DNA of 40,302 nt, taken from assembly GCA_031459875.1 (NCBI GenBank), contig JAVKHQ010000024.1, positions 1 to 40,302 of the forward strand. The letters run 5' to 3'. A program made the translations under genes and the position numbers. The number at the start of each line of letters is the position of its first letter. Position 1 is the first letter of the stretch. This document shows positions 6,712 to 23,390 of this stretch, piece after piece. The DNA comes from Candidatus Fervidifonticultor sextus. GTDB lineage: Bacteria > Sysuimicrobiota > Sysuimicrobiia > Sysuimicrobiales > Humicultoraceae. The notes below the pieces were generated by a model. The model was not told where the DNA came from. It saw nothing but the letters and a program-made list of their open reading frames with translations, and made no database searches.

Positions 6712-7701
6712 GTGGCTCGTCGACGGGTGAGGGATCACAGCCGACCGGGCAGCGTGTGGGGGCTGGTCGTGCTGAGCGTGATCGCGGCGACCGCCTTGCA
6801 CAGCACGGGCGATGCGCTCGCCGGGCCTTCGGCCCAGGCGTACCTGGAGCAGGCCATCATCCTCTACAACAGGGGCGAATGCGGCAGGGCCATCGTGCTC
6901 CTCACCAAAGCAGTGGCGGCCGCGCCCAGGTACGTGCGGGCGTACTCCTGGATGGGATTCTGCTATGCGACGCTGGGTCGGACCCGCGAGGCGGTGGCGG
7001 CGTTCAACCGCGTGATCGCCCTGGCGCCCGGAAGCGAGGATGCCCGAATCGCCAGGCAGTGGATCGCCAGGCTGCAGCGGCCTGCGGTGCGGAGGCCGAC
7101 CCCGACTCCCCTGGCGGCTCCGTCTCCGGCCCCCACGCCGCCCGGCCTGGTTTATCTGGTGAGCCTCCCCGCCGCCGCCGGCGTGACGGTGGACAACCGT
7201 CCCCGGCAGATCCAGTTGTTCGGGGTGATCTACCGGCACGCGCTGGTCGAACGGCGCAACTGGTGGCGGGGGCGACGCTCGATCGAGCGGGAGTGGAGGG
7301 TCGTCTACAACCTCCAGAGGCGGTTCTCGCGATTCCGCGCGCTCGCGGGGGTGGAGGACGGGTCCCCCCCGGAGTTCACCGCGACCTTCGAAGTCCGCGC
7401 GGACGGCACCGCCCTGTTCGAGGGTCACCCCAAGCGGGCCGGGGACGTCCCCGACGCCCTGGACCTCGACGTTGCCGGTGTCCTGCAACTCGAGATGATC
7501 GTCCGCGGGTACGACCCGCTGCACACGCGGGATCTGTCGGTCGTGTGGGCGGACCCTGCGCTGGACGCGCGGCCGGCGGTCACGCAACCGGCGCTCCCGC
7601 CGTCGCCAGCCGGGCCGCCGTCGCCAGCCGGGCCGCCGGTGCCCCCACCGGCGTCACCGCCGCCTGCCTCCCCGCCGGCATCGCCGTCCCCTGGAGGCTA
7701 G
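6712..7701 (+). CDS. Secreted TPR + NPCBM/NEW2-like domain protein
   Basis: Signal peptide, TPRs (AYSWMGFCYATLG..REAVAAFNRVIALAP), NPCBM-like YNLQRRFSRFRALAGV..FEVRADG..LDVAGVLQLEM..VWADP, Pro-rich tail. Confidence 0.8.
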   Translation: MARRRVRDHSRPGSVWGLVVLSVIAATALHSTGDALAGPSAQAYLEQAIILYNRGECGRAIVLLTKAVAAAPRYVRAYSWMGFCYATLGRTREAVAAFNRVIALAPGSEDARIARQWIARLQRPAVRRPTPTPLAAPSPAPTPPGLVYLVSLPAAAGVTVDNRPRQIQLFGVIYRHALVERRNWWRGRRSIEREWRVVYNLQRRFSRFRALAGVEDGSPPEFTATFEVRADGTALFEGHPKRAGDVPDALDLDVAGVLQLEMIVRGYDPLHTRDLSVVWADPALDARPAVTQPALPPSPAGPPSPAGPPVPPPASPPPASPPASPSPGG

Positions 7702-7708
7702 TCGGACC

Positions 7709-8059
7709 CTACGCGGCGTACTTCCTGGCCCAGTCGCTGACGACCGGGATGGAGACCTCCTTGCCGTTGTACGCCTGAACGGCCCAATAGATGGAAAGGA
7801 TCAGCCACGCGATCCACAGGATCGGCCCGGTCACGATCACCAAAAGCCAGCCCAGGAAGGGGATGTTGCCGAGGATCATCAGGCCGACGTAGATGATCAC
7901 CCACGCGATGCCCCAGAACAACGCCGTCCACCCGTGGTGCCGCATGAAGGCTTCCTTCTTCATGTCGGTGAGCACGATGATCAGGGCGATGATCCAGATG
8001 GGATAGGCCAGGGCGGCCAGGAGTTTGTTCGACTGCTCGGACGTGGGCTGGCTGCTCAT
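7709..8059 (-). CDS. DUF4870/Tic20-like membrane protein
   Basis: LAALAY...FMRHH...QAYNG...IPVV pattern, hydrophobic; GAGGAGG RBS. Confidence 0.85.
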   Translation of the reverse strand: MSSQPTSEQSNKLLAALAYPIWIIALIIVLTDMKKEAFMRHHGWTALFWGIAWVIIYVGLMILGNIPFLGWLLVIVTGPILWIAWLILSIYWAVQAYNGKEVSIPVVSDWARKYAA

Positions 8060-8150
8060 GCGCTCCCTCCTCGTTGCGGCTGGTAACGCCGCGGAACGTT
8101 ACTTCCTTCGAATCCGCCGGTGAAGTTCCTCCTTGGCCGGAGCCGCCGCT

Positions 8151-8156
8151 TATAAT
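8151..8156 (+). promoter_or_regulatory. -10 box (TATAAT) of the large operon
   Basis: Perfect TATAAT 9 nt upstream of ATG 8166; no SD in between. Confidence 0.6.
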
Positions 8157-8165
8157 GGAAGCACG

Positions 8166-9140
8166 ATGTCCGCCACGACAGTCCGTTCGGCCCGGGTGGA
8201 GGCGCTGGTCTCCGAGATCCGCGAGGTGACCGGGGGAGCGCCTGTCGTGGTGGCGTTTTCCGGGGGGCTCGACTCCTCGACCGTGGCCGCGCTGGCCAGA
8301 GAAGCCCTGGGCGCGCCCCACGTGCTCCTGGTTACCGTGAACATGGGCCAGTACGCCTACCGACGCGGCAACGAGATCGTATTGGAGATGGCCGAGCAGC
8401 TCGGGCTGCAGCAGCGCTGCCTGCTGGGACAGCAGGCGCAGCACGTCGTTCAGCGCAGCGGCCCCGCCTGCAACCGCTGCACCCGCCAGATCAAACTGGG
8501 GATGGTGAAGGCGGCAGCCCGCGGCCGGCTGGTGCTCACCGGGTCCAACCGCAGCGACACCTGGGGCCAGATGGGGGTCAAGCTCAGCAACGGCTACTAC
8601 TCCCCCCTGATCGACCTGGACAAGCCGCAGATCCGCGCCATCGCCGACGAACTCGGCCTGCGGATCCCGCGGATCGGCGAGCACTGGGGCCGCGAGGGCT
8701 GCACCCTCAAGCACCTGCTCAAGCCCCTGGTCAACCCCGACTACCACGGCCGCGCGGTGGCCGAGGCCAACGAGGTGCTGCTGCGTGTGCTGGCCGAAGC
8801 CCGGTTTGCCGCCGAGGTGGCCAACGTGAAGATCGTCGGCCCGCTGCGCCGGAACATCGGGCTGGTCAACGTCCGACCGCAGCCGCCCGAAGAGGTGAAG
8901 GCCGCCGTGTGGGGAGCCCTGCGCGAGCTGCCGGTCTTAGACGAGGTCCGCTTCGTGGAGGGGCCGGTCCGGCTGGTCGTCAGGATCGGGCCGGCACTGG
9001 CCGGCGATGCTGCCGGCCGGTACTGGATCGAGCACGGCCGCCTGGCGCCCGACTTCGCGCACCCGATCGAGGTGGAGTGGCACCCGAGCGCAGACGGCCG
9101 GCTCCATACCTTCCACGTGCTCGACGCCGTGGCGCTGTAG
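8166..9140 (+). CDS. PP-loop ATP pyrophosphatase, LarE/ExsB-like putative sulfur insertase
   Basis: VVVAFSGGLDSS PP-loop, ACNRC, TGSNRSD, SPLIDLDKPQIRAIADELGL, GCTLKH. Confidence 0.8.
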   Translation: MSATTVRSARVEALVSEIREVTGGAPVVVAFSGGLDSSTVAALAREALGAPHVLLVTVNMGQYAYRRGNEIVLEMAEQLGLQQRCLLGQQAQHVVQRSGPACNRCTRQIKLGMVKAAARGRLVLTGSNRSDTWGQMGVKLSNGYYSPLIDLDKPQIRAIADELGLRIPRIGEHWGREGCTLKHLLKPLVNPDYHGRAVAEANEVLLRVLAEARFAAEVANVKIVGPLRRNIGLVNVRPQPPEEVKAAVWGALRELPVLDEVRFVEGPVRLVVRIGPALAGDAAGRYWIEHGRLAPDFAHPIEVEWHPSADGRLHTFHVLDAVAL

Positions 9141-9141
9141 G

Positions 9142-10464
9142 ATGGCGCCGGTGGCTCCTGCGCGCCTGGTAGCCGGCAGGATTCCCGCCGCACCCGCCCG
9201 AACCTGCGAGCCGATGGTGGGACGTCGCATCGCCCTCTTCGTCACGCTCCTGGTCCTCCCGCTGGCGCCCGGCCGCGGCATCGGGGCGCCGTCGATCAGC
9301 ATTGAGTTCTGGACGATCTCGCTGCAGCCGTTCTTCACCGACTACATCAACGGGATGGTCGCGGCCTACGAGCGGGCCCATCCCGGGGTGAGGATCCGCT
9401 GGGTGGACGTCCAGTTCGGGGCCATCGAGCAAAAACTGCTGGCGGCGCTGGCCGGCGGGGTCGCCCCCGACGTCGTCAACCTGAATACCGAGATGACGGT
9501 CCGTTTGGCCGAGCGGAGCGCGCTGGTGGACATGGACGCCGCAGTCCCCGCAGCGGCCCGCGGCCGCTACTTCGACGGCCTGTGGCGCTCGACGCAGGTG
9601 CGGGGCCGGACCTACGGCATCCCCTGGTACGTCGTGCCCAACGTCATCGCCTACAACACGGCCCTCTACCGGCGGGCGGGCTTGAACCCCTCGCAGCCGC
9701 CCCAGACCGAAGAGGAGATGATCCAGCACGCCCGGACCATCAAAGACCGCGCCAGGGTCTACGGGTTCATGCCCAACGTGGACGGCGTGCGGATGCTGCA
9801 CCGGTTCCAGGAGAACGGTCTGCCGGTCCTCAGCCCCGACGGCAAGCGCGCGGTGTTCAACTCCCCCGCCCACGTGGAGTACCTGAGCCGCTATGTCGAC
9901 CTCTTCAGGCAGGACTACTTCCCCGAGGACACCCTCCGGCGCGGTTACCTGGGCGCCACCGAGCGGTACAGCGCCGGGCAGCTCGGCATGTTGATCACCG
10001 GCCCGCAGTTCCTCCTGCGCGTGAAGCGGGACAACCCGGAGGTGTACGCGCAGACGTTCGTGGCGCCGTATCCCAGGGGGAAGGGGAATACCCTCCATCT
10101 GGCGACCATGACGGTGGCCGTGCCGCGCGCCAGCCGGAACACGGAAGCCGCGGTGGACTTTGCGCTGTTCGTCACCAATGACGAGAATCAGCTGGCGTTC
10201 AGCCGGCAGGTGGTCGTCTTCCCCTCGACCCGCCAGGCCGCCAGCGACCCCTTCTTCCGGCAGGGCGGCGCCGCGCCCGAGGACGTCGCCCGCAAGGTAG
10301 CCGCGGCCGATCTCCCGTACGCCCGCGACCTCAGCGTGATCGTGCCCCACGCCGGAGACCTGTTCCGCGTGTTCCGCGAGGCGGTCGAGAGCGCGTTCTA
10401 CGGGAAGCGGACCCCCAGGGAGGCGCTGGACTGGGCGGTGGCACAGTGGAATGCGCGCCTGTGA
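9142..10464 (+). CDS. Carbohydrate ABC transporter substrate-binding protein (start may be 9214)
   Basis: IEFWTISLQPFF, PDVVNL, YGIPWY, IAYNTALYRRAGL; signal peptide from Met 9214. Confidence 0.92.
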   Translation: MAPVAPARLVAGRIPAAPARTCEPMVGRRIALFVTLLVLPLAPGRGIGAPSISIEFWTISLQPFFTDYINGMVAAYERAHPGVRIRWVDVQFGAIEQKLLAALAGGVAPDVVNLNTEMTVRLAERSALVDMDAAVPAAARGRYFDGLWRSTQVRGRTYGIPWYVVPNVIAYNTALYRRAGLNPSQPPQTEEEMIQHARTIKDRARVYGFMPNVDGVRMLHRFQENGLPVLSPDGKRAVFNSPAHVEYLSRYVDLFRQDYFPEDTLRRGYLGATERYSAGQLGMLITGPQFLLRVKRDNPEVYAQTFVAPYPRGKGNTLHLATMTVAVPRASRNTEAAVDFALFVTNDENQLAFSRQVVVFPSTRQAASDPFFRQGGAAPEDVARKVAAADLPYARDLSVIVPHAGDLFRVFREAVESAFYGKRTPREALDWAVAQWNARL

Positions 10465-12596
10465 GGGTCGCCCTGGCGCTGGCGCTCGCGGCCGCCGTGG
10501 CGCAGGCTGGGGCCGCGCCGGCGCGGGCCGGGCAGGATCGCTCCGTCGACCGGCTCCGACCGGCCCCGCGCGAGACCCGCATCATCCCTCTGCCGAAGTC
10601 GCTGCGCTGGCTGGACGGGGCGTTTGAGGTCACACCCGCCGGACGGATCCTCGTGGGCGCAGCGGCCCAGCCCGAAGACCTCTACGCCGCGCGCGACCTG
10701 AACCGGGAGCTGGCGGCCTGGGGCGCGCCCCCCCTGGAGGTCGTGCGCGCCGTCGCCGGCAGCGTGCCCGCCGGGACGATCGTCATCGGGGAACCCTCCC
10801 TCAACCCGCTGGCAGCGGACCTGCTGGCCCGCGACGGTCTGCGGGTCGCTCCCGGGGATCCGGGACCCGAGGGCTATGTGCTGCTCGTGACACCCGGGTA
10901 CGTCGTCGCCAGCGGCGCCGACCGCCGGGGAACCTACTACGCGGTTCAGACGCTGCGGCAACTGCTGGGCCGCGCCGACGGCCGCCTCGTCTTCCAGGGG
11001 GCCGCCATCCGGGACTGGCCCGACCACCGGATCCGCGCCGTCCACGTGCTGCTGGACGACGCCTCCGACGTCTTTCACACGGCCATGATCGAGCGCATTT
11101 TCAGCCGCTACAAGTTCAACATGCTGATTGCCCAGGCCGACTACGTGCGGTGGGACAGCGCGCGGAATCTCTGGCATCCCGGCGGCGCGACGAAGGCGCA
11201 GGCGGCGGCGGTCGTGGCGGCGGCCCGCGCCCACCTCATGGACCCGGTCCCGCTGATCCCTACCCTCGGCCACGTGGGCTGGCTGTTTGCCAACGACCAG
11301 AACCTCGACCTGCTGGAGATGCCGGCGGAGGCCGCCCCGGCGAGGTTCGTCTACCATCCGTTGAACCCGCGCGTCTACCAGGTCATCCTGCCGATCCTCG
11401 ACGAAGCGGTCGCGCTGTTCCGGCCGCGCTACCTCCACATCGGCCACGACGAGGTGCGCAACGTGGTCCCCTTCCCCTGGTCGGAGGAAGGCCGCCGCCT
11501 GGGCTTCGGCGAGCTCTTCGTCCGCGACGTCCTGCGGCTCTACGAGCACCTGGCATCGCGCGGCGTCGGCACGATGATGTGGGCCGACGTCCTGCTGTCC
11601 AGCGAGTACGTGCCCGAGTGGGCGCGGCTGCCGCGCGATATCCTGATGGTCGACTGGCAGTACCAGGCCGCGGCGCGCTATCCGAGCCTGGACCGGCTGC
11701 GGGCCCTGGGGTTCCCGGTGCTGGGGGCGACCTGGCACGGCTTTGCCAACAACGCGGCGCTGGCGCGCGACGCCCTGCGGGCGGGAGCCGCGGGGTTGGT
11801 CCGGACGACCTGGACGGGGTTCTTCGGAAACCGTGCGGCCCTCCAGTCCCAGTACCAGCAGCTCTACAGTTATCTCGTGGCGGCGGATCACTTCTGGCAT
11901 GCCGGCCGGGCCGACCCGTCCATGGACGAGATCGCGGCGGCCGCCCGCTTCCGGGCCGACTGGCACCAGGTGCGCGAGAACCCGCAGCCGGCCTCCGGCC
12001 GTCCCCTGGACCTGCGGGCGGTGGCGAACCGCAGCCACACGGACGACGGGTCTGGCTGGCTGGGGAAGGGACCCGCCTACGACCTCCGGGGTCTCCCGAT
12101 GGGGCTGCAGCGGTTCGGCGGGGTCCCCTTCCTGATCCTCGACCCCCTGGAGCGGGACGGTCGGAGCATCGTCATGCTGCGGGGGAGCCGCCCGCCGGCC
12201 TCCGACCTGCCCGACCGGGTGCGCATCGGCGCCGGGTTCGCCGCCGCCGGGCTGTGTTTCCTCCACGCGCTCCCGTACCCCGCGTCGCAGTTCGGGCAGG
12301 TGGTGGCCACCTACCGGGTGCGGTTCGCAGACGACGGCGTCGCGGCCATCCCGGTCCGCTACCGGCAGAACATCGGCACCTGGCTGGAAGACCCCGCCTC
12401 GATCGATCACGAGATCGTCTGGACCGGCCGGACGAGATCCGGCGTGCCTGTCCGGCTGTCCATGCTGTGCTGGACGAACCCCGACCCGCAGCGTCCCATC
12501 CTAACCATCGACCTGGAGGCCGCAGGCGCCGAGTCCGCCCCGGCGATCTTCGCCATCACGGCGCTGGAGCGGCCACGCGGGCCGGCACATCCGTGA
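10461..12596 (+). CDS. Secreted GH20 beta-N-acetylhexosaminidase with extra C-terminal domain
   Basis: GH20b domain (IIPLPK, PEGYVL, G.YYAVQTLRQL, IRDWP), catalytic HIGHDE, MMWAD, DWQY; GTGA overlap with the SBP stop. Confidence 0.9.
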   Translation: MRVALALALAAAVAQAGAAPARAGQDRSVDRLRPAPRETRIIPLPKSLRWLDGAFEVTPAGRILVGAAAQPEDLYAARDLNRELAAWGAPPLEVVRAVAGSVPAGTIVIGEPSLNPLAADLLARDGLRVAPGDPGPEGYVLLVTPGYVVASGADRRGTYYAVQTLRQLLGRADGRLVFQGAAIRDWPDHRIRAVHVLLDDASDVFHTAMIERIFSRYKFNMLIAQADYVRWDSARNLWHPGGATKAQAAAVVAAARAHLMDPVPLIPTLGHVGWLFANDQNLDLLEMPAEAAPARFVYHPLNPRVYQVILPILDEAVALFRPRYLHIGHDEVRNVVPFPWSEEGRRLGFGELFVRDVLRLYEHLASRGVGTMMWADVLLSSEYVPEWARLPRDILMVDWQYQAAARYPSLDRLRALGFPVLGATWHGFANNAALARDALRAGAAGLVRTTWTGFFGNRAALQSQYQQLYSYLVAADHFWHAGRADPSMDEIAAAARFRADWHQVRENPQPASGRPLDLRAVANRSHTDDGSGWLGKGPAYDLRGLPMGLQRFGGVPFLILDPLERDGRSIVMLRGSRPPASDLPDRVRIGAGFAAAGLCFLHALPYPASQFGQVVATYRVRFADDGVAAIPVRYRQNIGTWLEDPASIDHEIVWTGRTRSGVPVRLSMLCWTNPDPQRPILTIDLEAAGAESAPAIFAITALERPRGPAHP

Positions 12597-12615
12597 GGCG
12601 ATAGGAGGCAACCGC

Positions 12616-13092
12616 GTGAAAGACCGCGGCGTCGTGCTCGCCATCCACCTGCAGCCAGCCAGGGGGCAGCCGCCGCGCTCTGTCGGCCAGGCGCGGGCGC
12701 TGGTGGGCTTTGGCCTGGAGGGTGACTGCCACGGCAAGCACCGCCCCGGGAGTGCGCGTCAGGTGCTGCTGGTCGACCGCCGGACCCTGGAGGCGCTGGG
12801 CTTCGAGCCCGGCGCGCTGCGGGAGCAGCTGACCGTGGACCTGCCGGGTCTGGACAGCCTGCCGCCCGGGGTCCGCCTCACCGTCGGCGAGGCGGTCCTG
12901 GAGGTCACCGGTGCCTGCCACCCGTGCGAGGTGATCGGCAGGATCAACGCCGTGGCCGATCCGTATGCGCTCCGGGACGCCCTGGTGGGCCGGCGGGGCG
13001 TCCTGGCGAAGGTCATCGAGGTGGTGGGCGAGGGCCGCATCCGCCCTGGCGACCCGCTCGTGGTCCAGGCGCCTGCGCCGGCGTCGCCGTGA
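12616..13092 (+). CDS. MOSC domain protein
   Basis: GLEGD.H, RQVLL, PGALREQL, LEVTGACHPC, RRGVLAKV..G.IRPGD; AGGAGG RBS. Confidence 0.9.
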   Translation: MKDRGVVLAIHLQPARGQPPRSVGQARALVGFGLEGDCHGKHRPGSARQVLLVDRRTLEALGFEPGALREQLTVDLPGLDSLPPGVRLTVGEAVLEVTGACHPCEVIGRINAVADPYALRDALVGRRGVLAKVIEVVGEGRIRPGDPLVVQAPAPASP

Positions 13093-14105
13093 TGCACCTG
13101 GCCGGGCGCCTCGTCGTGGAGCAGGTCGAGAGCCAGGCGCTGCGGGGCAACCCGCTGGGCGACCCGCACGTCCGTCAGATTCCCGTCTACCTGCCACCCG
13201 GCTACGAGGCCGGCACCGCGGCCTACCCCACGATCTACTGGCTGCACGGCTTCACCGGCATCGGGCTGTCGGCCATCAACGCGAACCCGTGGGTGCCGTC
13301 GTTGCCCGAGTGCATGGACCGGGTCATCGCCGCCGGCGCGCCCCCGGCCATCCTGGTCATGGCCGATGGCTTCACGAAGTTCGGCGGCAGCCAGTACCTG
13401 AACTCCGAGGCCACCGGGCGCTACGAAGACTTCATCGTCGCTGACCTGGTGCCGTACATCGACGGCCGGTACCGGACCCTGGCCGACGCGGCGCACCGGG
13501 GGGTGGACGGCAAGTCCAGCGGCGGCTACGGCGCGCTGGTGCTGGCCATGCGCCACCCCGATGTGTTCGGCGCCGCGGCCGCGCACTCCGCCGACATGTA
13601 CTTCGAGGTCTGCTACATGCCCGACTTCTGGAAGTTCTGCACCATCGTGGCCAGGCACGGAGGGGTGGAGGGATTCCTGCGCGCCTTCCTGGAGATGCCC
13701 AAGAAGACCCCCGAGGCGCTGACCGCCGTCAACATCGCGGCCATGGCCATGGCGTATTCGCCCAATCCGAACCGGCCGCCGTACTTCTTCGACCTGCCCT
13801 TCGATCCCCACACCGGAGAACTCGACGAACAGACCTGGGCACGCTGGCTGGCCTGGGATCCGGTCCGGATGGCCGGGCGCCACGCGGACGCGCTGCGCGC
13901 GCTCCGGCTGCTCTACTTCGAGTGCGGCGCCCGTGACCAGTACCACCTCCATCTGGGCGCCCGGTTGCTCCACCAGCGGCTGGAGCGGCTGGGGATCCGG
14001 CATGAGTACGTCGAGTTCGACGACGACCACACGTCCATCAACTACCGCTACGTGGAATCCCTGCGCCGGCTCTGCCACGCGCTGGCCGGACCCCATGGCG
14101 GCTGA
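13092..14105 (+). CDS. Alpha/beta-hydrolase esterase (CE1/Fes-like)
   Basis: VYLPPGY, WLHGFTG, GKSSGG nucleophile elbow, CGARD, DDDH; TGATG overlap. Confidence 0.9.
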   Translation: MHLAGRLVVEQVESQALRGNPLGDPHVRQIPVYLPPGYEAGTAAYPTIYWLHGFTGIGLSAINANPWVPSLPECMDRVIAAGAPPAILVMADGFTKFGGSQYLNSEATGRYEDFIVADLVPYIDGRYRTLADAAHRGVDGKSSGGYGALVLAMRHPDVFGAAAAHSADMYFEVCYMPDFWKFCTIVARHGGVEGFLRAFLEMPKKTPEALTAVNIAAMAMAYSPNPNRPPYFFDLPFDPHTGELDEQTWARWLAWDPVRMAGRHADALRALRLLYFECGARDQYHLHLGARLLHQRLERLGIRHEYVEFDDDHTSINYRYVESLRRLCHALAGPHGG

Positions 14106-15033
14106 GGTCCCGGCCCCCGCCTCCGCCGCCCGCCCGGTCGGGCTGTTCGGGCTCTCCCGCCGGCAGTGGCAGACCACCCTGGTCGCCTACCTGTTCCTGC
14201 TCCCGGCGCTGCTGCTGCTGAGCCTGTTCACGTTCTACCCCGTGGCGTTTGGGACCGCGCTCAGCCTCTTCGACTACGATGTCATCTCCCCGCCCCGCTT
14301 CGTGGGGCTGGACCACTTCCGCGCGCTGTGGGCCGATCGGTACCTGTGGATCGCGCTGGCCAACTCGGTGAAATTCCTCCTGGTGGTCCCGGTGCTGCAG
14401 GCCTGCTCCATCGGCCTGGCGGTGGCCGTCAACCGGCCGCTGCGCGGCATCCGGTGGTTCCGCGCCGCCTACTACCTGCCGGTGGTGACGTCCATGGTCG
14501 TCGCGGGGCTCATGTGGCGCTGGCTGCTGGAGCAGGACGGGGTCGTCAACTTCGCCCTGCTGCGCCTCGGGGTGCTCGAGCGGCCGGTGGCCTGGCTGGG
14601 GCACCCGGACCTGGCGCTGTACGCCGTGATGTTCGTGACGCTGTGGAAGGGCCTGGGCTACTACATGGTGATCTACCTGGCCGGGCTCCAGGCCATCCCA
14701 CCGGAGGTGGAGGAGGCGGCGGTCACCGACGGCGCCTCGCGCTGGCAGGTCTTCCGGTGGGTCACGATGCCCTTGCTGCGGCCCTCGATCCTGCTGGCGT
14801 CCACGATCTCGGCGATCGCGGCCCTCAAGGTCTTCGAGGAGATCTACGTGATGACCGGCGGCGGGCCCATGTTCCGGACCTACACGATGTTCTTCTACAT
14901 CTTCGACAAGGGCTTCCAGCAGCTGGACCTGGGCTACGCCGCAGCCATCGCGGTCGTGCTGGCCGCGGCCGTGATGGCGCTGTCGGCGGTCAACTTCCGG
15001 ATCTTCCGGCAGGGAGGGTGGACGTATGACTGA
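14095..15033 (+). CDS. Carbohydrate ABC transporter permease 1
   Basis: YLFLLPA, IYLAGLQAIP.E..EAA..DGAS EAA motif. Confidence 0.95.
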   Translation: MAAEVPAPASAARPVGLFGLSRRQWQTTLVAYLFLLPALLLLSLFTFYPVAFGTALSLFDYDVISPPRFVGLDHFRALWADRYLWIALANSVKFLLVVPVLQACSIGLAVAVNRPLRGIRWFRAAYYLPVVTSMVVAGLMWRWLLEQDGVVNFALLRLGVLERPVAWLGHPDLALYAVMFVTLWKGLGYYMVIYLAGLQAIPPEVEEAAVTDGASRWQVFRWVTMPLLRPSILLASTISAIAALKVFEEIYVMTGGGPMFRTYTMFFYIFDKGFQQLDLGYAAAIAVVLAAAVMALSAVNFRIFRQGGWTYD

Positions 15034-15868
15034 GTCCCGACTGCCGGGTCGTCCAGGCGCCGCGGCAGTAGCCGCCCGCTACGCGATGCTGGTGGCACTG
15101 GCCGCCTTCACCACCTTCCCGCTGCTGTGGCTGGCGTCGGTGGCGCTGCGCACCACCGGCGCCGTCTTCGGCTTCCCCCCGTCGCTCGTGCCGTGGCCGC
15201 CATCGCTGGCCAACTTCGCAGCCGTGTGGCACACGATGCCCCTGCCCCGGTTCTTCCTCAACACCCTGCTCCTGTGCGGCGCCGCCGTGGCCCTGAACCT
15301 GATCTTCTGCTCGATGGCCGCCTACCCGCTGGCCCGGATGGAGTTTCCCGGCCGCCGGCTAGTCTTCGCGCTGCTGCTGTCCACCCTGATGCTGCCCGGC
15401 CACGTGGGCCTGATCGTGAACTTCGTGACGCTGCTGCGGCTGCGTCTGGTCGACACCTATGCCGGCGTGCTGCTGCCCGGCGCGGTGTCCGTCTTCGGGA
15501 TCTTCCTGCTCCGGCAGGCCTTCCTGACCGTGCCGCACGACCTGGAGGACGCGGCGCGCATCGACGGCGCCTCCGAGTGGACCATCTGGTGGCGGGTGAT
15601 GGTGCCGGTGATTTCACCGTCGCTGGCGGCGCTGGCCCTGTTCGAGTTCGTCGCAGTCTGGAACTCGTTCCTGTGGCCGCTCATCGTGCTGAAGTCGCCG
15701 GAGAAGTACCCGCTGGCCGTCGGATTGCTTTACCTGTCGGGCCTGTTCGCCCACAACACCCGGGCGGTGGCAGCCGGCGCGGTATTGATGACGCTGCCGA
15801 TCCTGGTCGTGTTCCTGTTCACCCAGCGCTACTTCGTGCGCGGGCTGACGCTGGGGGCGGTCCGGTGA
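15026..15868 (+). CDS. Carbohydrate ABC transporter permease 2
   Basis: DLEDAARIDGASE, WNSFLWPLI, QRYFVRGL..GAV. Confidence 0.95.
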   Translation: MTESRLPGRPGAAAVAARYAMLVALAAFTTFPLLWLASVALRTTGAVFGFPPSLVPWPPSLANFAAVWHTMPLPRFFLNTLLLCGAAVALNLIFCSMAAYPLARMEFPGRRLVFALLLSTLMLPGHVGLIVNFVTLLRLRLVDTYAGVLLPGAVSVFGIFLLRQAFLTVPHDLEDAARIDGASEWTIWWRVMVPVISPSLAALALFEFVAVWNSFLWPLIVLKSPEKYPLAVGLLYLSGLFAHNTRAVAAGAVLMTLPILVVFLFTQRYFVRGLTLGAVR

Positions 15869-15896: not shown

Positions 15897-17405
15897 ATGA
15901 GGCGGGTGCTCTTCATCCCGCTCGACGATCGGCCGGCCACGCGCGTGACGGTGCTGGACCTGCTGCCGCTGCTCGGCGCCGCGTGGGACACACCGCCGAA
16001 GGACCTGCTCGGCCACCGCCGGAGGCCGGCAGACCTGGACGCCCTCTTCCGCTGGGCGGAGCGCGAGGCCGAAAGCGCCGACGCTCTGATCGCCCCCGCC
16101 GAGGTGTTCGTCCACGGCGGGCTGGTCCCCTCGCGGCTCTCCGTGGATCCCCTGGAGGTGCTGTGGCGACGGCTCGACCGCCTGGTGCGGCTGGCCGGCC
16201 GGGTGCCCACGTATCTGTCCGCGACCAACCCCCGCATCCCGGCCGGCGGCGCCGACGAGGAGCCGGGCTACTGGGCCGAGTACGGCGACCGGCTGCGCGC
16301 GTACTCGACGCACCTGGACGCCGGGGCGCTGGCGGGCGACGACGCGCGCGTGCGCCGCGCGCTGGAGGCCCTCGACGGCGTGCCGGCCGCCGTCGTCGAC
16401 GACTTCCTCCGCCGCCGACGCCGGCAGCTGCTGGTCAACCTGGAACTCATCCTGCTGGCAGCCCAGAGCCGCCTGGCCGCGCTGCTGATCGGTCAGGACG
16501 ACGCCGAACCCCACGGATTCCCGCGCGCCGATCTCGCAGTACTCCAACGGTTCCGCGAACGCTGCGGGGCCGGCCGTGCCTGCGTCTCGGTCGGCGCCGA
16601 CGAACTGGGAGCCCGGTTGCTGGCGCGGCTGGCGGTGGACGCCTCCGGCCGCTCGCCGCGCGTGGCCGTCCGGTACACCTTCCCGGAGGCCAGGCGCAGC
16701 GTGCCGCGCTACGAGCCGTTCCCCCTCGAGGACACGGTGGCCGGCCACCTGGAGGCCGCGGGGTGCACCGTCGCGGCCGGCGACGCCGAGATCCTGCTGT
16801 GGGTGCACAACTTCGCCGGCGCCCAGCAGCGGGAATCGCGGGACCAGCGCGGCGCGCCGCCGGCGCCGGTCCGGACGGTGGCCGCCGCCCTGGCCGAGGC
16901 GGCTTCGCGGGGCATCGTGTGCGGGTGCGCCGACGTGCGGTTCGCCAACGGCGCCGACGACGCGCTGGTGCGGTCGCTGCTGGCGCGGGAGGACCTGGCG
17001 GGCCTGGCCGGGTACGCGGGGTGGAACACCTGCAGCAACAGCCTGGGTACCGTCCTGGCACAGGTGATCCTGGCCTACGGCGCGCAGTCCCACCTGGGTG
17101 AGGCGCGCTTCCGGCAGATCCGCCGGCGCTACCTGACCCGGCGGCTGCTCGACGACTGGGGGTACCAGACGGTCGTGCGGCCCTACCTGGCCGACGAGGT
17201 GGTGGGGGCGTTGGGCGCCGATGCGACCCGCCTGGGGCCGGCCGCGCCGGCGGTGCGCGAGGTGGCATTGCGCCGGTTCCACGAGGAGATCCTGCCGCCG
17301 GTGGAGCGGGCCCTCGGGCCGGCCGGCTTTGCGGACCTGGCGTTTCCCTGGGACCGTCTGTTCGAAGTCGAGGTCCGGTTTTCCGATGAGCCGCAGGGCA
17401 TGTGA
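15897..17405 (+). CDS. DUF4127 family protein
   Basis: FIPLDDRP, GGLVPSR, GQDD, GADE, ADV.FANGAD, YAGWNT.SNSLGT, LLDDWGYQ, FPWDRLFE. Confidence 0.88.
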   Translation: MRRVLFIPLDDRPATRVTVLDLLPLLGAAWDTPPKDLLGHRRRPADLDALFRWAEREAESADALIAPAEVFVHGGLVPSRLSVDPLEVLWRRLDRLVRLAGRVPTYLSATNPRIPAGGADEEPGYWAEYGDRLRAYSTHLDAGALAGDDARVRRALEALDGVPAAVVDDFLRRRRRQLLVNLELILLAAQSRLAALLIGQDDAEPHGFPRADLAVLQRFRERCGAGRACVSVGADELGARLLARLAVDASGRSPRVAVRYTFPEARRSVPRYEPFPLEDTVAGHLEAAGCTVAAGDAEILLWVHNFAGAQQRESRDQRGAPPAPVRTVAAALAEAASRGIVCGCADVRFANGADDALVRSLLAREDLAGLAGYAGWNTCSNSLGTVLAQVILAYGAQSHLGEARFRQIRRRYLTRRLLDDWGYQTVVRPYLADEVVGALGADATRLGPAAPAVREVALRRFHEEILPPVERALGPAGFADLAFPWDRLFEVEVRFSDEPQGM

Positions 17406-18750
17406 CGTGGCGGTGATCGGCGGCGGGCCGGCGGGCAGCGTGGCCGCCATCGCCGCGGCACGGGAGGGTGCGCGCGTCGTGCTCGTCGAACGCTACGGCT
17501 TCCTGGGCGGAACGCTGACGGTCGCCATGGTGGCGCCCATGATGGGGTTCCACGCCGGGAGCCAGCAGGTGGTCCGCGGCATCCCCGGCGAGATCGTGGA
17601 CCGGCTGGTGGCCATCGGCGCCTCGCCCGGGCACGTGCCCGATCCGATTGACTTCTGCGATTCGGTGACCCCGTTCGACTACGAGGGACTCAAGCGCGTC
17701 CTGTTGGAGCTGGCCGTGGAGGCCGGCGTCGAGTTGTGGCTCCACACCGTCTTCCTGGACGCCCGCGTCGCTGCCGGTACCGTCCAGGCCGTCCGCGTCT
17801 GGCAGAAGGACGGGGAGAAGGAGATCCGTGCGCCGGTGTTCGTGGACGCCTCCGGCGACGGCGACCTCTCGGTGGCCGCCGGCGCGCAGGCCGAGATCGG
17901 ACGGCCCGAAGACCACCGCCCGCAGCCGATGACCCTGATGATCCGCCTGGGCGGCGTGGACTGGGACGCCGTGATGGACTACATCGGGCGCCACCCCGAC
18001 GAGATCCAGCACGGGCAGGGGATCCACGGGCGCATCGAGGTCTCGTGGTTGAAGGGGCTGCCCACCCGCGGGTTTGCCGGATTCGGCGCGCTCGTGCGCG
18101 AGGCCCGCCAGCGCGGGGAGTGGACGGTTCCCCGCGACCGGCTGCTGGTCTTCGAGGGCGTGCGGGCCGGAGAAGCCGTCGTGAACACCACGCGGGTGCT
18201 GGGCCGCCTGGGCATCCGGGGCGACGACCTGGCCCGTGCCGAGGTCGAGGGCCGGCAGCAGGCCTATCAGGTGGTGGACCTGCTGCGCCGCCGCGTGCCG
18301 GGATTCGCCGGGGCCTACCTGCTCGAGACGCCGGCCCAGATCGGCGTGCGCGAGACGCGGCGCATCGTGGGAGACTACGTGCTGACCGCCGAGGACATCC
18401 TGGCCGCCCGGAAGTTCGACGACGCCATCGCGTGCGGCGCCTACCCCATCGACATCCACGACCCGGCCTCGGACCGGCTGGTGACCCGCCGCCTGCCGCC
18501 GGGCGAGTACTACACGATCCCGTACCGATGCCTGCTCCCCCGCGGAGGGGAGAACTGGCTGACGGCCGGGCGCTGCATCTCGGCCACCCACGAGGCGTTT
18601 GCGGCCTTCCGGGTCTCGGCCATCGTCATGGCCATCGCGCAGGCGGCCGGGACAGCGGCGGCGATGGCGGCGCGGGCCGGGATCCGACCCCGGGCGATCG
18701 ACCCGCAAGTCCTCAGGCAGGTCCTGCGGGAGCGGGGCGCGTTCGTGTAG
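17386..18750 (+). CDS. FAD-dependent oxidoreductase (PF12831-type)
   Basis: DVAVIGGGPAG, VDASGDGD, GVRETRRI.G.YVLT, YPIDIH, IPYRCLLP, AGRCISATHEA. Confidence 0.92.
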   Translation: MSRRACDVAVIGGGPAGSVAAIAAAREGARVVLVERYGFLGGTLTVAMVAPMMGFHAGSQQVVRGIPGEIVDRLVAIGASPGHVPDPIDFCDSVTPFDYEGLKRVLLELAVEAGVELWLHTVFLDARVAAGTVQAVRVWQKDGEKEIRAPVFVDASGDGDLSVAAGAQAEIGRPEDHRPQPMTLMIRLGGVDWDAVMDYIGRHPDEIQHGQGIHGRIEVSWLKGLPTRGFAGFGALVREARQRGEWTVPRDRLLVFEGVRAGEAVVNTTRVLGRLGIRGDDLARAEVEGRQQAYQVVDLLRRRVPGFAGAYLLETPAQIGVRETRRIVGDYVLTAEDILAARKFDDAIACGAYPIDIHDPASDRLVTRRLPPGEYYTIPYRCLLPRGGENWLTAGRCISATHEAFAAFRVSAIVMAIAQAAGTAAAMAARAGIRPRAIDPQVLRQVLRERGAFV

Positions 18751-19302: not shown

Positions 19303-19974
19303 ATGGCTGATCCCCTCTCCCGGCGCGGCCTGTTGATCGTCAGCCTCCCGCGCAACGATGTGGCCCTGGCGCGGGCTGCGGCCGCTGCCGGCGCGGACCT
19401 GCTCAAGGTGCACGTTAACGTCCGCCACCGGGCGTCTGGCACGCGGTTTGGGTCCCTCGACGACGAGGAGGACGCGATCGCCCGGGTCCTGGAGGTCGGG
19501 CTCCCGACGGGCCTGGTGCCCGGCGAAGAAGCGATGGTGACCCCGGACCAGGTCCCGCGCCTGCGGCGGTTCGCCTTTCTCGACGCGTTCGTGACCCGGC
19601 TTCCGCTCTTCCTCTACGACGTGGGCGTCCCGGTGATCCCGGCGATTCCGCACGACTATCCGGCCGAAGCGCTGGGCTCGCTGGGCGCGCTGCCCGGCGA
19701 GTGGTTGGAGGCGGCGCTGGTCCCGCCGGAGGGGTACGGTCTGGATCCGGTCGCCGACGACCTGGTGGCGCTGGCGCGCCTGGGGGCGATCTCCCGTCGC
19801 CGGCTCATTGTGCCGACCCAGCGGCGGATCCGGCCCGAGGACGTGAGCCGCTACTTCGCCATCCCGCAGGTCTGGGCGGTCATGATCGGCGCCGTGGTGG
19901 CCGGACGGACGGCCCGCGGCCTCGGCCGGGCCACCGAGGCGTTCCGCCGCGCCCTGGAGGCGCTGGCGCCGTGA
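19303..19974 (+). CDS. Uncharacterised ribulose-phosphate-binding TIM-barrel protein (NanE-like fold)
   Basis: LIVSLP, AAAAAGAD.LKVH, LIVPTQ, C-terminal AVMIGAVV phosphate-binding-like strand. Confidence 0.6.
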   Translation: MADPLSRRGLLIVSLPRNDVALARAAAAAGADLLKVHVNVRHRASGTRFGSLDDEEDAIARVLEVGLPTGLVPGEEAMVTPDQVPRLRRFAFLDAFVTRLPLFLYDVGVPVIPAIPHDYPAEALGSLGALPGEWLEAALVPPEGYGLDPVADDLVALARLGAISRRRLIVPTQRRIRPEDVSRYFAIPQVWAVMIGAVVAGRTARGLGRATEAFRRALEALAP

Positions 19975-22227: not shown

Positions 22228-23390
22228 CGCTCGAGGAAGCGGTCAAAGCGCGGGCCGTCGAGATCGGCTTCGATCTTGTCGGGATCACCACGGCGGATCC
22301 GTTCCCCGAGGCCGACGCCGCCTACCAGCGATGGATCGAGGCCGGCATGCACGCGGGCATGGCGTACATGGCGGCCCACCGCGACCGTGTGGGCTCCCCG
22401 CGCCGCGCGCGGCCCGGCGCCCGATCCATTGTGGCCGTGGCGATGAACTACTACGCCGGCGAGCCCTCCCCGCCGCAGGACGGGGAACTGCGCGGCCGGA
22501 TCGCCCGGTACGCCTGGGGAGACGACTACCACCGGGTGATGGAGACGCGGTTGCGCGCGCTGAGCGGGTTCCTCGTGGCGCAGGGCGCGACGCTGGCCCA
22601 CTACTACGTGGATACCGGTCCGACCCTCGACCGCGCCATCGCCCAGCGCGCGGGGTTGGGCTGGTGCGGCCGCCACAGTTGCCTGATCACGAAATCCTAT
22701 GGCACCTGGGTCGTGCTGGGCGAGATCCTCACCGACCTGGCGCTCCGGCCCGACCCCCCGGCTGAGGGCGACTGCGGATTGTGCTGGAACTGCATGCACG
22801 GGTCCGAAGCCTGCCCGACCGGCGCCATCGTCGCCCCCGGGGTCGTGGACGCGCGCAGGTGCATCTCCTACTGGACCATCGAGCACCGCGGCTGGATCCC
22901 CCGCGAGGTGCGGCCCGCGCTCCAGGACATGATCTTCGGCTGCGACCTCTGCCAGGAGGCCTGCCCGTTCAACCGGCTGGCCAGGCCCACGGCGCATCCC
23001 GAGTTCCGTCCGCGGCCCGAGATCGGCACGCATCCCAGGCTGCTGCCCCTGCTGAACCTTTCCGAGGCAGACTATCACCGTCTCTTCCGCCGCAGCGCGG
23101 TCAAGCGGGCCGGCCGCAGCGGGCTGCGCCGCAACGTGGCCGTCGCGCTGGGCAACCTCGGCGATGAGCGCGCGGTCCCCGGGCTGACCGCCGCGCTGGG
23201 CGATCCCGCCGACCCGGTGGTGCGGGGGCACGCGGCCTGGGCGCTGGGCCGCATCGGGGGCCGGGCCGCGCGGGATGCCCTGGAGGCCGCGCGCCGCACC
23301 GAGTGCGATCCCGCAGTGGCCGGCGAGATCCAGGCCGCGCTGGAGGAGGGATGGGAGGTGCCGGCGCGGCGCGAATCCGATTACCGGTGA
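22224..23390 (+). CDS. queG: tRNA epoxyqueuosine(34) reductase QueG with C-terminal HEAT repeats
   Basis: IARYAWGDDYH, YVDTGP, AGLGW.G, DARRCISYWTIE, FGCDLCQEACPFN, LRRNVAVALGN, VRGHAAWALG. Confidence 0.95.
   Translation: MTLEEAVKARAVEIGFDLVGITTADPFPEADAAYQRWIEAGMHAGMAYMAAHRDRVGSPRRARPGARSIVAVAMNYYAGEPSPPQDGELRGRIARYAWGDDYHRVMETRLRALSGFLVAQGATLAHYYVDTGPTLDRAIAQRAGLGWCGRHSCLITKSYGTWVVLGEILTDLALRPDPPAEGDCGLCWNCMHGSEACPTGAIVAPGVVDARRCISYWTIEHRGWIPREVRPALQDMIFGCDLCQEACPFNRLARPTAHPEFRPRPEIGTHPRLLPLLNLSEADYHRLFRRSAVKRAGRSGLRRNVAVALGNLGDERAVPGLTAALGDPADPVVRGHAAWALGRIGGRAARDALEAARRTECDPAVAGEIQAALEEGWEVPARRESDYR

Follow-up and report, generated by a model that had tools for sequence, protein, structure and literature searches.

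A narrow family of LarE-related PP-loop ATP pyrophosphatases beside a sugar-uptake operon in Candidatus Fervidifonticultor sextus

The DNA analysed here (the window) is a stretch of 40,302 nucleotides from Candidatus Fervidifonticultor sextus, a member of the Sysuimicrobiota, in which a gene for a 324-residue PP-loop ATP pyrophosphatase (8166-9140, + strand) precedes a sugar-uptake operon. Pfam and NCBIfam profiles, an AF2 model and fold matches assign its product to a distinct family resembling both LarE and GMP synthase (GMPS). Divergent from it is a gene for a DUF4870 membrane protein (7709-8059, - strand; Pfam 45.9 bits), a recurrent neighbour that lies adjacent to, or within 3 kb of, the PP-loop gene in most related loci. 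On the + strand, the operon opens with an ABC sugar solute-binding protein (SBP; 9214-10464; SBP_bac_1, 112 bits), followed by a GH20-like protein (10446-12596; Glyco_hydro_20b 61.9 bits, catalytic domain only 28.8 bits) and a stand-alone MOSC protein of 158 residues (12616-13092; PF03473, 42.9 bits against a cut-off of 22.7). Beyond these lie an esterase (13092-14105; PF00756, 84.1 bits), two ABC permeases (14173-15033 and 15026-15868; BPD_transp_1, 55.5 and 57.8 bits), a DUF4127 protein (15897-17405; 364 bits) and an FAD-dependent oxidoreductase (17221-18750; PF12831, 415 bits), whose PF12831 match starts at residue 62 and whose actual start probably lies after 17221. The GH20-like gene is variable: among 13 related operons of sufficient length, 9 have it, and MOSC is found in 7 of 13. 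A sequence-only reading of the locus had described the PP-loop gene as embedded in the operon, with MOSC three genes downstream and no lar or queD/E/F gene in the window. MOSC is indeed the third gene downstream, after SBP and GH20-like, and no lar or queD/E/F gene occurs among the window ORFs scanned; the PP-loop gene, however, flanks the operon on its 5' side, lying 73 bp upstream of where SBP starts. That reading made no mention of a + strand gene for the epoxyqueuosine reductase QueG at about 22.3-23.4 kb (22300-23390, start approximate), recognisable by its QueG_DUF1730 (22395-22616), Fer4_16 and HEAT domains.

Regulatory signals around the gene are sparse. A TATAAT hexamer at 8151-8156 (+ strand), 9 nt before the ATG, is possibly a promoter of the PP-loop gene itself, which would give a very short leader; the hexamer went uncalled by the consensus promoter scan because it lacks a -35 element. 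That scan called no + strand promoter, and its sole promoter-like match, on the - strand, falls within the GH20-like gene, as does the sole terminator-like match, both counts being at chance level. Since the gap to SBP is 73 bp and the terminator scan found nothing between the two genes, co-transcription in this genome is possible. A search for riboswitches and other RNA elements in 7000-13500 returned none, bar two sub-threshold matches to miRNA models.

The motifs first noticed at the locus (SGGLDS, CNRC, a later GC motif and an SPL..K..IR..A..LGL segment in the PP-loop protein, CHPC in MOSC) can all be read in the translations. The SGGLDS loop (S32-S37; 8259-8276, + strand), the site of ATP alpha/beta-phosphate binding, is invariant at S32, G33, G34, D36 and S37 in 19/19 family sequences and sits on a Rossmann-like alpha/beta fold, as is characteristic of the PP-loop ATP pyrophosphatase superfamily. 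CNRC (C102-N-R-C105; 8469-8480, + strand) supplies two candidate [4Fe-4S] ligands; the third invariant cysteine belongs to the stretch R176-E-G-C179-x-x-x-H183-L184 (8691-8717, + strand; REGC at 8691-8702), in which R176, E177, G178, C179, H183 and L184 are all invariant columns of the 19-sequence alignment. C102, C105 and C179 are unchanged in every one of these sequences, across 29-100% identity, and only one further cysteine, at position 85, is present in the protein. The segment YSPLIDLDKPQIRAIADELGL (8598-8660, + strand) does carry the SPL..K..IR..A..LGL pattern, but its description as LarE-like does not stand as a specific mark of LarE: NAD synthetase and GMP synthase align over it as well. 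The CHPC of MOSC (12916-12927, + strand) is the invariant C101-x-P-C104, both cysteines being kept in 18/18 sequences. The gene encodes a bona fide MOSC protein with a conserved cysteine region, comparable to stand-alone YuaD/YiiM-like proteins and the MoaC-MOSC fusion PRK14499.

The AF2 model of the PP-loop protein (pLDDT 90.6) has a predicted two-domain fold like that of the GMP synthase ATP-pyrophosphatase subunit and of [4Fe-4S]-LarE. By VIA-align it superposes on GMPS 2dpl with Z 20.7 (251 aligned, rmsd 3.5), on the [4Fe-4S]-LarE 8cnz with Z 18.1 (234 aligned, rmsd 3.5) and on LarE 5udq with Z 18.0 (240 aligned, rmsd 3.4). The GMPS subunit (GuaA-B; 2dpl, 3a4i, 6jp9) is the best whole-length structural match, over model residues 5-297 (Foldseek E 1.6e-14), and shares the arrangement of a PP-loop domain followed by a C-terminal alpha/beta domain; unlike GMPS, however, with which sequence similarity is limited to the PP-loop, the family has a cysteine triad. 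The C-terminal domain (about residues 190-324; 8733-9137, + strand) is family-specific, with invariant A219-N-x-K222..G225, N235 and P238, and has no Pfam or NCBIfam match, yet its fold is covered by the C-terminal domains of GMPS and LarE (model ranges 5-297 and 6-306). No fused forms of this domain occur among proteins of 568-2000 residues, which is weak evidence. The family is also uniformly basic, with a pI of 8.3-9.9 in 19/19 members, where 19 LarE-like proteins have a median of 6.4.

By sequence, the closest relative is LarE. TIGR00268 is the best-scoring NCBIfam model, albeit at 48.9 bits against a cut-off of 150 and over residues 25-166 only, and hhalign joins the N-terminal 160 residues, the only part that aligns, to LarE-like proteins with 99.7% probability (E 1.8e-25), a signal far beyond chance. 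The CxxC motifs are in register, C102 and C105 aligning with the CxxC of mmLarE-[4Fe-4S] in 8cnz, for which our statements rest on the PDB title and the alignment, and with that of the LarE-like profile A3. The C-terminal halves share no sequence similarity (E 0.45), and C179 falls outside the region alignable by sequence. The spacing is CxxC-73-C here, compared with Cys92, Cys95 and Cys172 of Thermotoga maritima LarE, which passages of PMC9283937 assign to a [4Fe-4S] cluster and catalytic sulfur transfer. Together with the invariance of the triad, these alignments uphold the description of a LarE-type PP-loop enzyme with a CxxC...C pattern. The resemblance to the [4Fe-4S]-LarE proteins of T. 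maritima and M. maripaludis (8cnz) extends to the SGGxDS loop, the CxxC in register, a third cysteine some 75 residues later and the two-domain fold. In place of CL[AS]SR and RVR in LarE, however, the family has C-[KT]-L-K-H and A-N-V-K. According to passages of PMC9283937, the C-terminal domain of L. plantarum LarE binds substrate phosphate through S180, R212 and R214; the second domain here resembles that of LarE in fold, but for lack of sequence similarity these residues cannot be mapped onto it.

The protein belongs to a narrow, uncharacterised PP-loop ATP pyrophosphatase family that is sister to LarE, not nested inside it. In a quick tree of 41 rows with few outgroups, a branch with SH-aLRT 96 separates the 19 family rows as one clade from 19 LarE-like rows, and neither the tree nor the profiles cluster the protein with canonical LarE or QueC. 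The outcomes that the sequence-only reading had named as refuting it thus did not turn up, the three cysteines being conserved and larB and larC missing from the 96%-complete genome. Only 13 clusters were recovered at E<=1e-30 among 1.84 billion representatives, and the ESM Atlas returned the family's own clusters only, most commonly from Thermotogota and under generic names. Within the phylum the family is present in 77/94 genomes; outside it, occurrence is sporadic (Thermotogota, Synergistota, Coprothermobacterota, Caldisericota). Members are named in databases as QueC, ExsB, asparagine synthase-related, LarE or '7-cyano-7-deazaguanine synthase'. Two further identities can be set aside. That of NadE is rejected on partial cover of the Pfam NAD_synthase profile (35.5 bits, cut-off 21; residues 14-130 on profile positions 9-120 of 242), a TIGR00552 score of 33.5 bits against 63.65, short of a full-length NadE match, and a separate 246-residue NadE encoded on contig C10. 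That of GMP synthase is rejected on a TIGR00884 score of 30.7 bits against a cut-off of 338.75 and a true GuaA (494 bits) on contig C5.

The gene's surroundings differ between lineages, in counts that are not independent because the 94 genomes of the phylum come from a single order. SBP lies downstream of the PP-loop gene in 17 loci at >=75% identity, but the operon is next to the orthologue in 0/21 loci at 65-72% identity, and its gene order next to the homologue in 0/26 loci of distant relatives (39-49% identity; one representative scanned per recurrent neighbour cluster); the link with the sugar operon is confined to one family. Elsewhere the neighbours are QueG, HSP20/CorA, SHMT/CoaB, RNase III or IscS-IscU. 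QueG is the conserved downstream partner of an older syntenic block: it lies downstream on the same contig and strand in 23/23 f4, f5 and f7 genomes with both genes (0.3-2.7 kb away in 22, 8.8 kb in one), and 10-15 kb downstream, with the sugar operon in between, in 10 f1 genomes. In a low-GC lineage of nine loci, a thioredoxin-like gene precedes the PP-loop gene in 9/9, and farther upstream, where contigs reach, are CcdA (7 loci), IscU/NifU (5) and a class-V aminotransferase of the cysteine-desulfurase type (2); DUF2148 follows in 6. In another lineage RNase III follows the PP-loop gene in 5/5 loci. Together with the basic pI, these two settings hint at sulfur chemistry and an RNA substrate.

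We propose, with a probability of roughly 0.55, that the PP-loop protein is a stand-alone ATP-dependent sulfur insertase, probably bearing a [4Fe-4S] cluster, with a substrate that is probably a nucleotide or tRNA. Family identity, cysteine conservation, the fold, the lack of pathways for QueC and the nickel-pincer nucleotide, and the patterns of synteny and occurrence are observed here; the cluster, the transfer of sulfur and the kind of substrate are what we infer. By homology, the SGGLDS loop would bind ATP and the enzyme would adenylate a carbonyl or carboxyl oxygen of the substrate; C102, C105 and C179 would hold the cluster, whose fourth iron would carry sulfide delivered by a cysteine desulfurase; and this sulfide would displace AMP to yield a thiocarbonyl or thiocarboxylate. 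The enzyme would work alone, its place at the head of a sugar operon being a feature of one family, that of the window, in which the operon separates the PP-loop gene from QueG, two genes that other families keep close together. As to the substrate, a nucleotide, either free or, more probably, as part of tRNA, is suggested by the two-domain fold shared with GMPS and LarE, by the basic pI of all members and by neighbours related to RNA or tRNA; the neighbours and the pI are soft evidence.

A more specific version of this proposal, which we think less likely than not, is that the family is a hitherto unrecognised [4Fe-4S] tRNA thiolase able to replace ThiI or another classical thiolase in these mostly thermophilic lineages. 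TtuA and NcsA carry a three-cysteine [4Fe-4S] cluster, and the family shares with TtuA/NcsA, ThiI and MnmA its PP-loop adenylation chemistry (structural Z 12.9-14.6) and, like them, is basic and scattered among housekeeping genes; it differs from them in lacking zinc fingers, a THUMP domain and the MnmA barrel, and their structural scores are below those of LarE and GMPS. The genome itself encodes MnmA and one TilS-like protein, with no ThiI, TtuA or TtcA found. Every genus of the phylum has ThiI, the PP-loop family or both, and the four genera that lost the family all keep ThiI.

The three cysteines and the invariant His183 could equally make up a Cys3His zinc site of the kind seen in other PP-loop enzymes. 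The protein would then be an ammonia-using amidoligase of the NadE/GMPS/QueC kind, with C102, C105, C179 and perhaps H183 binding structural zinc. Its best structural match is the GMPS subunit and its best Pfam match NAD_synthase, His183 lies four residues past C179, and QueC, according to passages of PMC13329287, has a zinc bound by cysteines. We nevertheless judge the amidoligase unlikely: LarE is the closest sequence family, with the CxxC in register with its cluster ligands; a three-cysteine pattern of the same spacing binds [4Fe-4S] in T. maritima LarE; the gene sits behind IscS-IscU in one lineage; and the genome has true NadE and GuaA genes at other places.

The sequence-only reading had looked instead to the operon, suggesting that the PP-loop and MOSC proteins serve it together, through new thio-sugar or thiocarboxylate chemistry or through a sulfur cofactor for DUF4127 or the flavoprotein. 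Proximity speaks for this: the PP-loop gene lies on the same strand just upstream, with no predicted terminator, the order PP-loop then SBP is kept in 17 related loci, and of the 24 genomes that carry PP-loop and MOSC genes, 22 have MOSC 0.1-3.6 kb downstream on the same strand of one contig, in two gene contexts (the other two are fragmented assemblies with the genes on different contigs), the pair being directly adjacent, at 87-130 bp, in genus g14. The phyletic patterns, however, come apart. MOSC orthologues are kept in 6 genomes of g17 and g19, genera without the PP-loop gene, and 52-53 genomes have the PP-loop gene without such a MOSC (counts for MOSC are 1/23 in f4, a weak match, 0/12 in f5 and 0/8 in g12). 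In g17 the order GH20-MOSC-permease-permease-DUF4127 exists with the PP-loop gene nowhere in the genome, and in g19 the nitroreductase...MOSC-SHMT-CoaB block is otherwise intact but cleanly lacks that gene. DUF4127 is found in all four PP-loop-less genera and is absent from the PP-loop-positive g14, g16 and most of g29; even among related operons, MOSC is missing from 6 of 13. Distant members lie in non-sugar contexts, the lone GHMP kinase neighbour not being orthologous to that of the window (E 0.11), nor the hydrolase beside distant members to the window's esterase (E 0.34). MOSC and DUF4127, like LarA and QueF, each show a phyletic pattern independent of that of the PP-loop gene, and a joint function in the operon is improbable. 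A complex prediction for the PP-loop and MOSC proteins scored 0.00 (mark 0.32), which speaks neither for nor against binding. The tie between the two is gene proximity only, which looks like inherited synteny, although their closeness may reflect selection and not ancestry alone; under the stand-alone insertase, the nearby MOSC gene would most simply be a relic of that synteny, not a sulfur carrier.

A divergent but true LarE, making NPN, the nickel-pincer nucleotide, as cofactor for a LarA homologue, is very improbable. The genome does hold a Lar_N homologue on contig C12 (134 bits), LarE is the top NCBIfam model, and 17/19 LarA-positive genomes of the phylum also carry the family. Yet LarB/LarC adjoin about half of LarE genes according to passages of PMC13329287, and a search of this 96%-complete genome gave no LarC match at E<=0.001, for LarB only a 23.8-bit PurE-like match and no LarE over the TIGR00268 cut-off; Lar_N occurs in 19/94 phylum genomes against 77/94 for the family, leaving at least 60 carriers without LarA. 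The missing LarB and LarC, this phyletic mismatch and the score far below cut-off, with the separate clade, basic pI and a C-terminal half unrelated in sequence, lead us to reject it.

A non-canonical QueC whose preQ0 would come from salvaged CDG, a reading suggested by certain database names and brought to mind by QueG being the next gene in 8 genomes and by canonical QueC in 0/94 phylum genomes, where QueF (64/94) and QueG (55/94) are common, is scarcely credible and is rejected on the QueF/QueG patterns: genus g19, without the family, keeps QueF (6/7) and QueG (7/7), f5 carries the family (11/12) with QueF in 0/12, the genome has no QueD, and the protein scores 28.6 bits against 150.3 on TIGR00364, over the PP-loop residues 28-86 only, and has no C(x)8CxxCxxC zinc motif.

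These results open no route to new thio-sugar chemistry. They do correct a propagating annotation error, as the names QueC, ExsB, asparagine synthase-related and LarE all fail the tests applied here. If the proposed mechanism is true, the family would join TtuA/NcsA, archaeal ThiI and LarE as the fourth lineage of PP-loop sulfur insertases that depend on a cluster, a lineage with a C-terminal domain of its own and with conservation throughout an uncultured phylum of hot springs and in scattered thermophiles.

The window, with a GC content of ~70%, is contig C17 of a 3.05 Mb genome that is 96% complete, and its relatives are hot-spring MAGs carried under the labels Armatimonadota, Sysuimicrobiota or Candidatus Fervidifonticultor. 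A 324-aa PP-loop protein is encoded on the forward strand at 8166-9140, and translation places its SGGLDS motif at 8259-8276, CNRC at 8469-8480, YSPLIDLDKPQIRAIADELGL at 8598-8660 and REGC at 8691-8702. A perfect TATAAT hexamer without a good -35 element lies at 8151-8156, 9 nt 5' of the ATG, and the transcript may lack a leader or carry a very short one. The same strand continues downstream with genes for an ABC solute-binding protein (9214-10464), a GH20-like protein (10446-12596), a 158-aa MOSC protein (12616-13092, with CHPC at 12916-12927), an esterase, two permeases, DUF4127 and a PF12831 flavoprotein, followed by a 223-aa protein without a Pfam match (19303-19974), a GHMP kinase, an MFS transporter and QueG (22300-23390). 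The GH20-like protein matches domain 2 well (61.9 bits) but the catalytic domain only weakly and in part (28.8 bits, positions 76-243 of the 348 in the profile); in three related loci (L020, L021 and L049) the 223-aa protein is conserved at ~80%. Translation and domain matches bear out the motifs and downstream genes of the sequence-only reading. Its account of the PP-loop gene as embedded in a sugar operon was wrong, as the gene flanks that operon, and the 'SPL...LGL' segment that it took for a LarE-like mark is common to NadE and GMP synthase.

The PP-loop family is a narrow one: of 1.84 billion representatives scanned, 158 matched at E<=0.001 and just 13 at E<=1e-30, the remainder being LarE-like proteins that align over residues 10-167 only. 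Full-length relatives, at 29-45% identity, occur in MAGs that carry the labels Thermotogota, Synergistota, Coprothermobacterota and Caldisericota. The family profile, aligned with a profile of 19 LarE-like proteins, matches it across the N-domain (E 1.8e-25) as far as residue 168 and keeps the CxxC in register; between the C-terminal halves there is no similarity (E 0.45). A quick tree, in which GuaA is a long, unreliable branch, separates the 19 family members by one branch (SH-aLRT 96) from 19 LarE-like rows. The AF2 model (pLDDT 90.6, from a 19-row alignment) is closest in fold to the GMP synthase ATP-pyrophosphatase subunit (Z 20.7), with which Foldseek concurs, and scores Z 18.1 against [4Fe-4S]-LarE, 18.0 against L. 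plantarum LarE and 12.9-14.6 against NcsA, ThiI, QueC, MnmA and TtuA. LarE is the top NCBIfam model, at 48.9 bits (cut-off 150) and over residues 25-166 only; QueC (28.6 bits, cut-off 150.3), NadE (33.5, cut-off 63.65) and GMPS (31.3, cut-off 338.75) likewise fall short. The genome encodes a genuine GuaA (494 bits) and NadE, as well as MnmA, one TilS-like ATP_bind_3 protein, Tgt and QueF; it has no canonical LarE, QueC or QueD, no match to LarC and no LarB, for which the sole match is PurE-like (23.8 bits). The checks that the sequence-only reading proposed, an HMM comparison with LarE, QueC and NadE and a genome-wide search for larB and larC, do not lead back to LarE. The family is genuinely uncharacterised and mis-named in databases. 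Separately, a LarA-type Lar_N homologue (locus L001, contig C12:120706-121317, 134 bits) is encoded in this genome without LarB, LarC or canonical LarE; this LarA homologue may be an orphan that either does not use the nickel-pincer cofactor or obtains it by another route.

Invariant across the 19-member alignment are the PP-loop, C102, C105, C179, H183 and a C-terminal A-N-x-K..G...N..P motif; C85 is not. The CxxC aligns with that of the solved [4Fe-4S]-LarE structure 8cnz. T. maritima LarE, as described in an excerpt of PMC9283937, holds its [4Fe-4S] cluster by Cys92, Cys95 and Cys172, a spacing that the 102/105/179 of the PP-loop protein nearly matches, and passes on non-core sulfide supplied by IscS. 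On the preferred reading, the PP-loop enzyme would adenylate its substrate in an ATP-dependent step, whereupon cluster-bound sulfide would attack the adenylated substrate, as in LarE/TtuA-type chemistry; a rival reading would make the protein a zinc-binding amidoligase. Among 26 further loci with distant relatives, mostly from low-GC metagenomes, no partner gene is common to the context groups, which include galactokinase-[PP]-hexapeptide transferase-hydrolase, aminomutase-[PP]-HAD-Lnt, NusB-PP-loop fragment-[PP]-MtnA-AlaRS and [PP]-RNase III-XerC-RelA/SpoT (preceded by PurK-PurE in the sole representative locus scanned), [PP] being the family gene. Sulfur or Fe-S supply is hinted at by one context alone, (cysteine-desulfurase-type aminotransferase)-IscU-CcdA-thioredoxin-[PP]-DUF2148. 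In this low-GC lineage (L066:4696-9650 and its sisters L057-L060, L062-L064 and L077) a thioredoxin-like gene precedes the family gene in 9/9 loci, DUF2148 follows in six, and upstream, where contigs extend, are CcdA (seven), IscU (five) and the aminotransferase (two), all genes on one strand.

The sequence-only reading proposed that the PP-loop and MOSC proteins may make a thio-sugar, a thiocarboxylate or a cofactor for DUF4127 or the flavoprotein, and distributions across 94 species genomes of the phylum, all from a single order, support none of these links. (The counts take in two genomes, G016 and G024, that are flagged unpublished; no conclusion depends on them alone, because G015 repeats the pattern of G016 for genus g5.) The PP-loop family is present in 77/94 genomes (47/54 high-quality) and missing from the entire genera g5, g7, g17 and g19; Lar_N, in 19/94, is far rarer. 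The MOSC orthologue, in 35/94, is distributed independently, occurring in the PP-loop-less g17 (2/2) and g19 (4/7) whereas it is essentially missing from the PP-loop-positive families f4 (1/23, weak) and f5 (0/12) and genus g12 (0/8). DUF4127 (72/94) is found in all four PP-loop-less genera and missing from the PP-loop-positive g14, g16 and most of g29.

Gene order likewise offers sugar uptake no support. The solute-binding protein gene comes next in 17 loci whose PP-loop orthologue is at least 75% identical; 13 of these extend far enough to show the rest, seven of them with MOSC and nine with GH20, which the other four lack. The operon is found at none of 21 loci with a 65-72% orthologue, where the neighbours are a peptide ABC system, QueG, HSP20, DUF4870, CorA or a glucosaminidase-hyp184-MOSC-SHMT-CoaB run, and the distant contexts differ again. 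A single observation favours a functional link between the PP-loop and MOSC proteins, the position of MOSC 0.1-3.6 kb downstream on the same strand, in two different contexts, in 22 of the 24 genomes with both genes (the other two being fragmented assemblies with the genes on separate contigs), but we consider such a link, as a facultative one, unlikely: each gene persists without the other and all genomes come from one order, and their closeness is therefore read as inherited synteny. In g19 (L137 and L139) the nitroreductase-[AHSA1]-glucosaminidase-hyp184-MOSC-SHMT-CoaB block is intact and only the PP-loop gene is gone. In g17, which belongs to another family, MOSC is once more part of the sugar operon (GH20 end-MOSC-permease-permease-DUF4127; L138, G045:C37:1-3634) and the PP-loop gene is nowhere in the genome; the MOSC-operon association is thus older and firmer than that of MOSC with the PP-loop gene. 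All 23 f4, f5 and f7 genomes that have both the PP-loop gene and QueG carry QueG downstream of the former on its strand and contig (as the next gene in eight); in 10 genomes of f1, the window's family, QueG is 10-15 kb downstream, with the sugar operon between. These arrangements are most simply explained by an old PP-loop...QueG neighbourhood that acquired the sugar operon in f1.

Canonical QueC is absent from all 94 genomes, and the distributions of QueC, QueF (64/94; found in g17 and g19, not in f5) and QueG (55/94) together rule out the PP-loop family as its substitute. With no QueC in the phylum and no QueD in the window's genome, yet QueF, QueG and that genome's Tgt retained, the pattern suggests salvage of preQ0 for queuosine synthesis.

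ThiI is encoded in 42/94 genomes, including all four PP-loop-less genera and 13 of the 17 PP-loop-less genomes; the four genomes with neither are 65-85% complete. Among the 94 genomes no genus lacks both ThiI and the PP-loop family (chance probability ~0.06-0.08, phylogeny ignored), a complementarity that is a lead only, because 12 genera have both. The window's genome has neither ThiI nor any TtuA/TtcA-type protein. Together with a GMPS/LarE-like second domain, a pI of 8.3-9.9 in all 19 family members (LarE-like proteins have a median of 6.4) and neighbours that include QueG, RNase III, NusB and AlaRS, this absence is a soft pointer to a nucleotide or tRNA as the substrate of the family.
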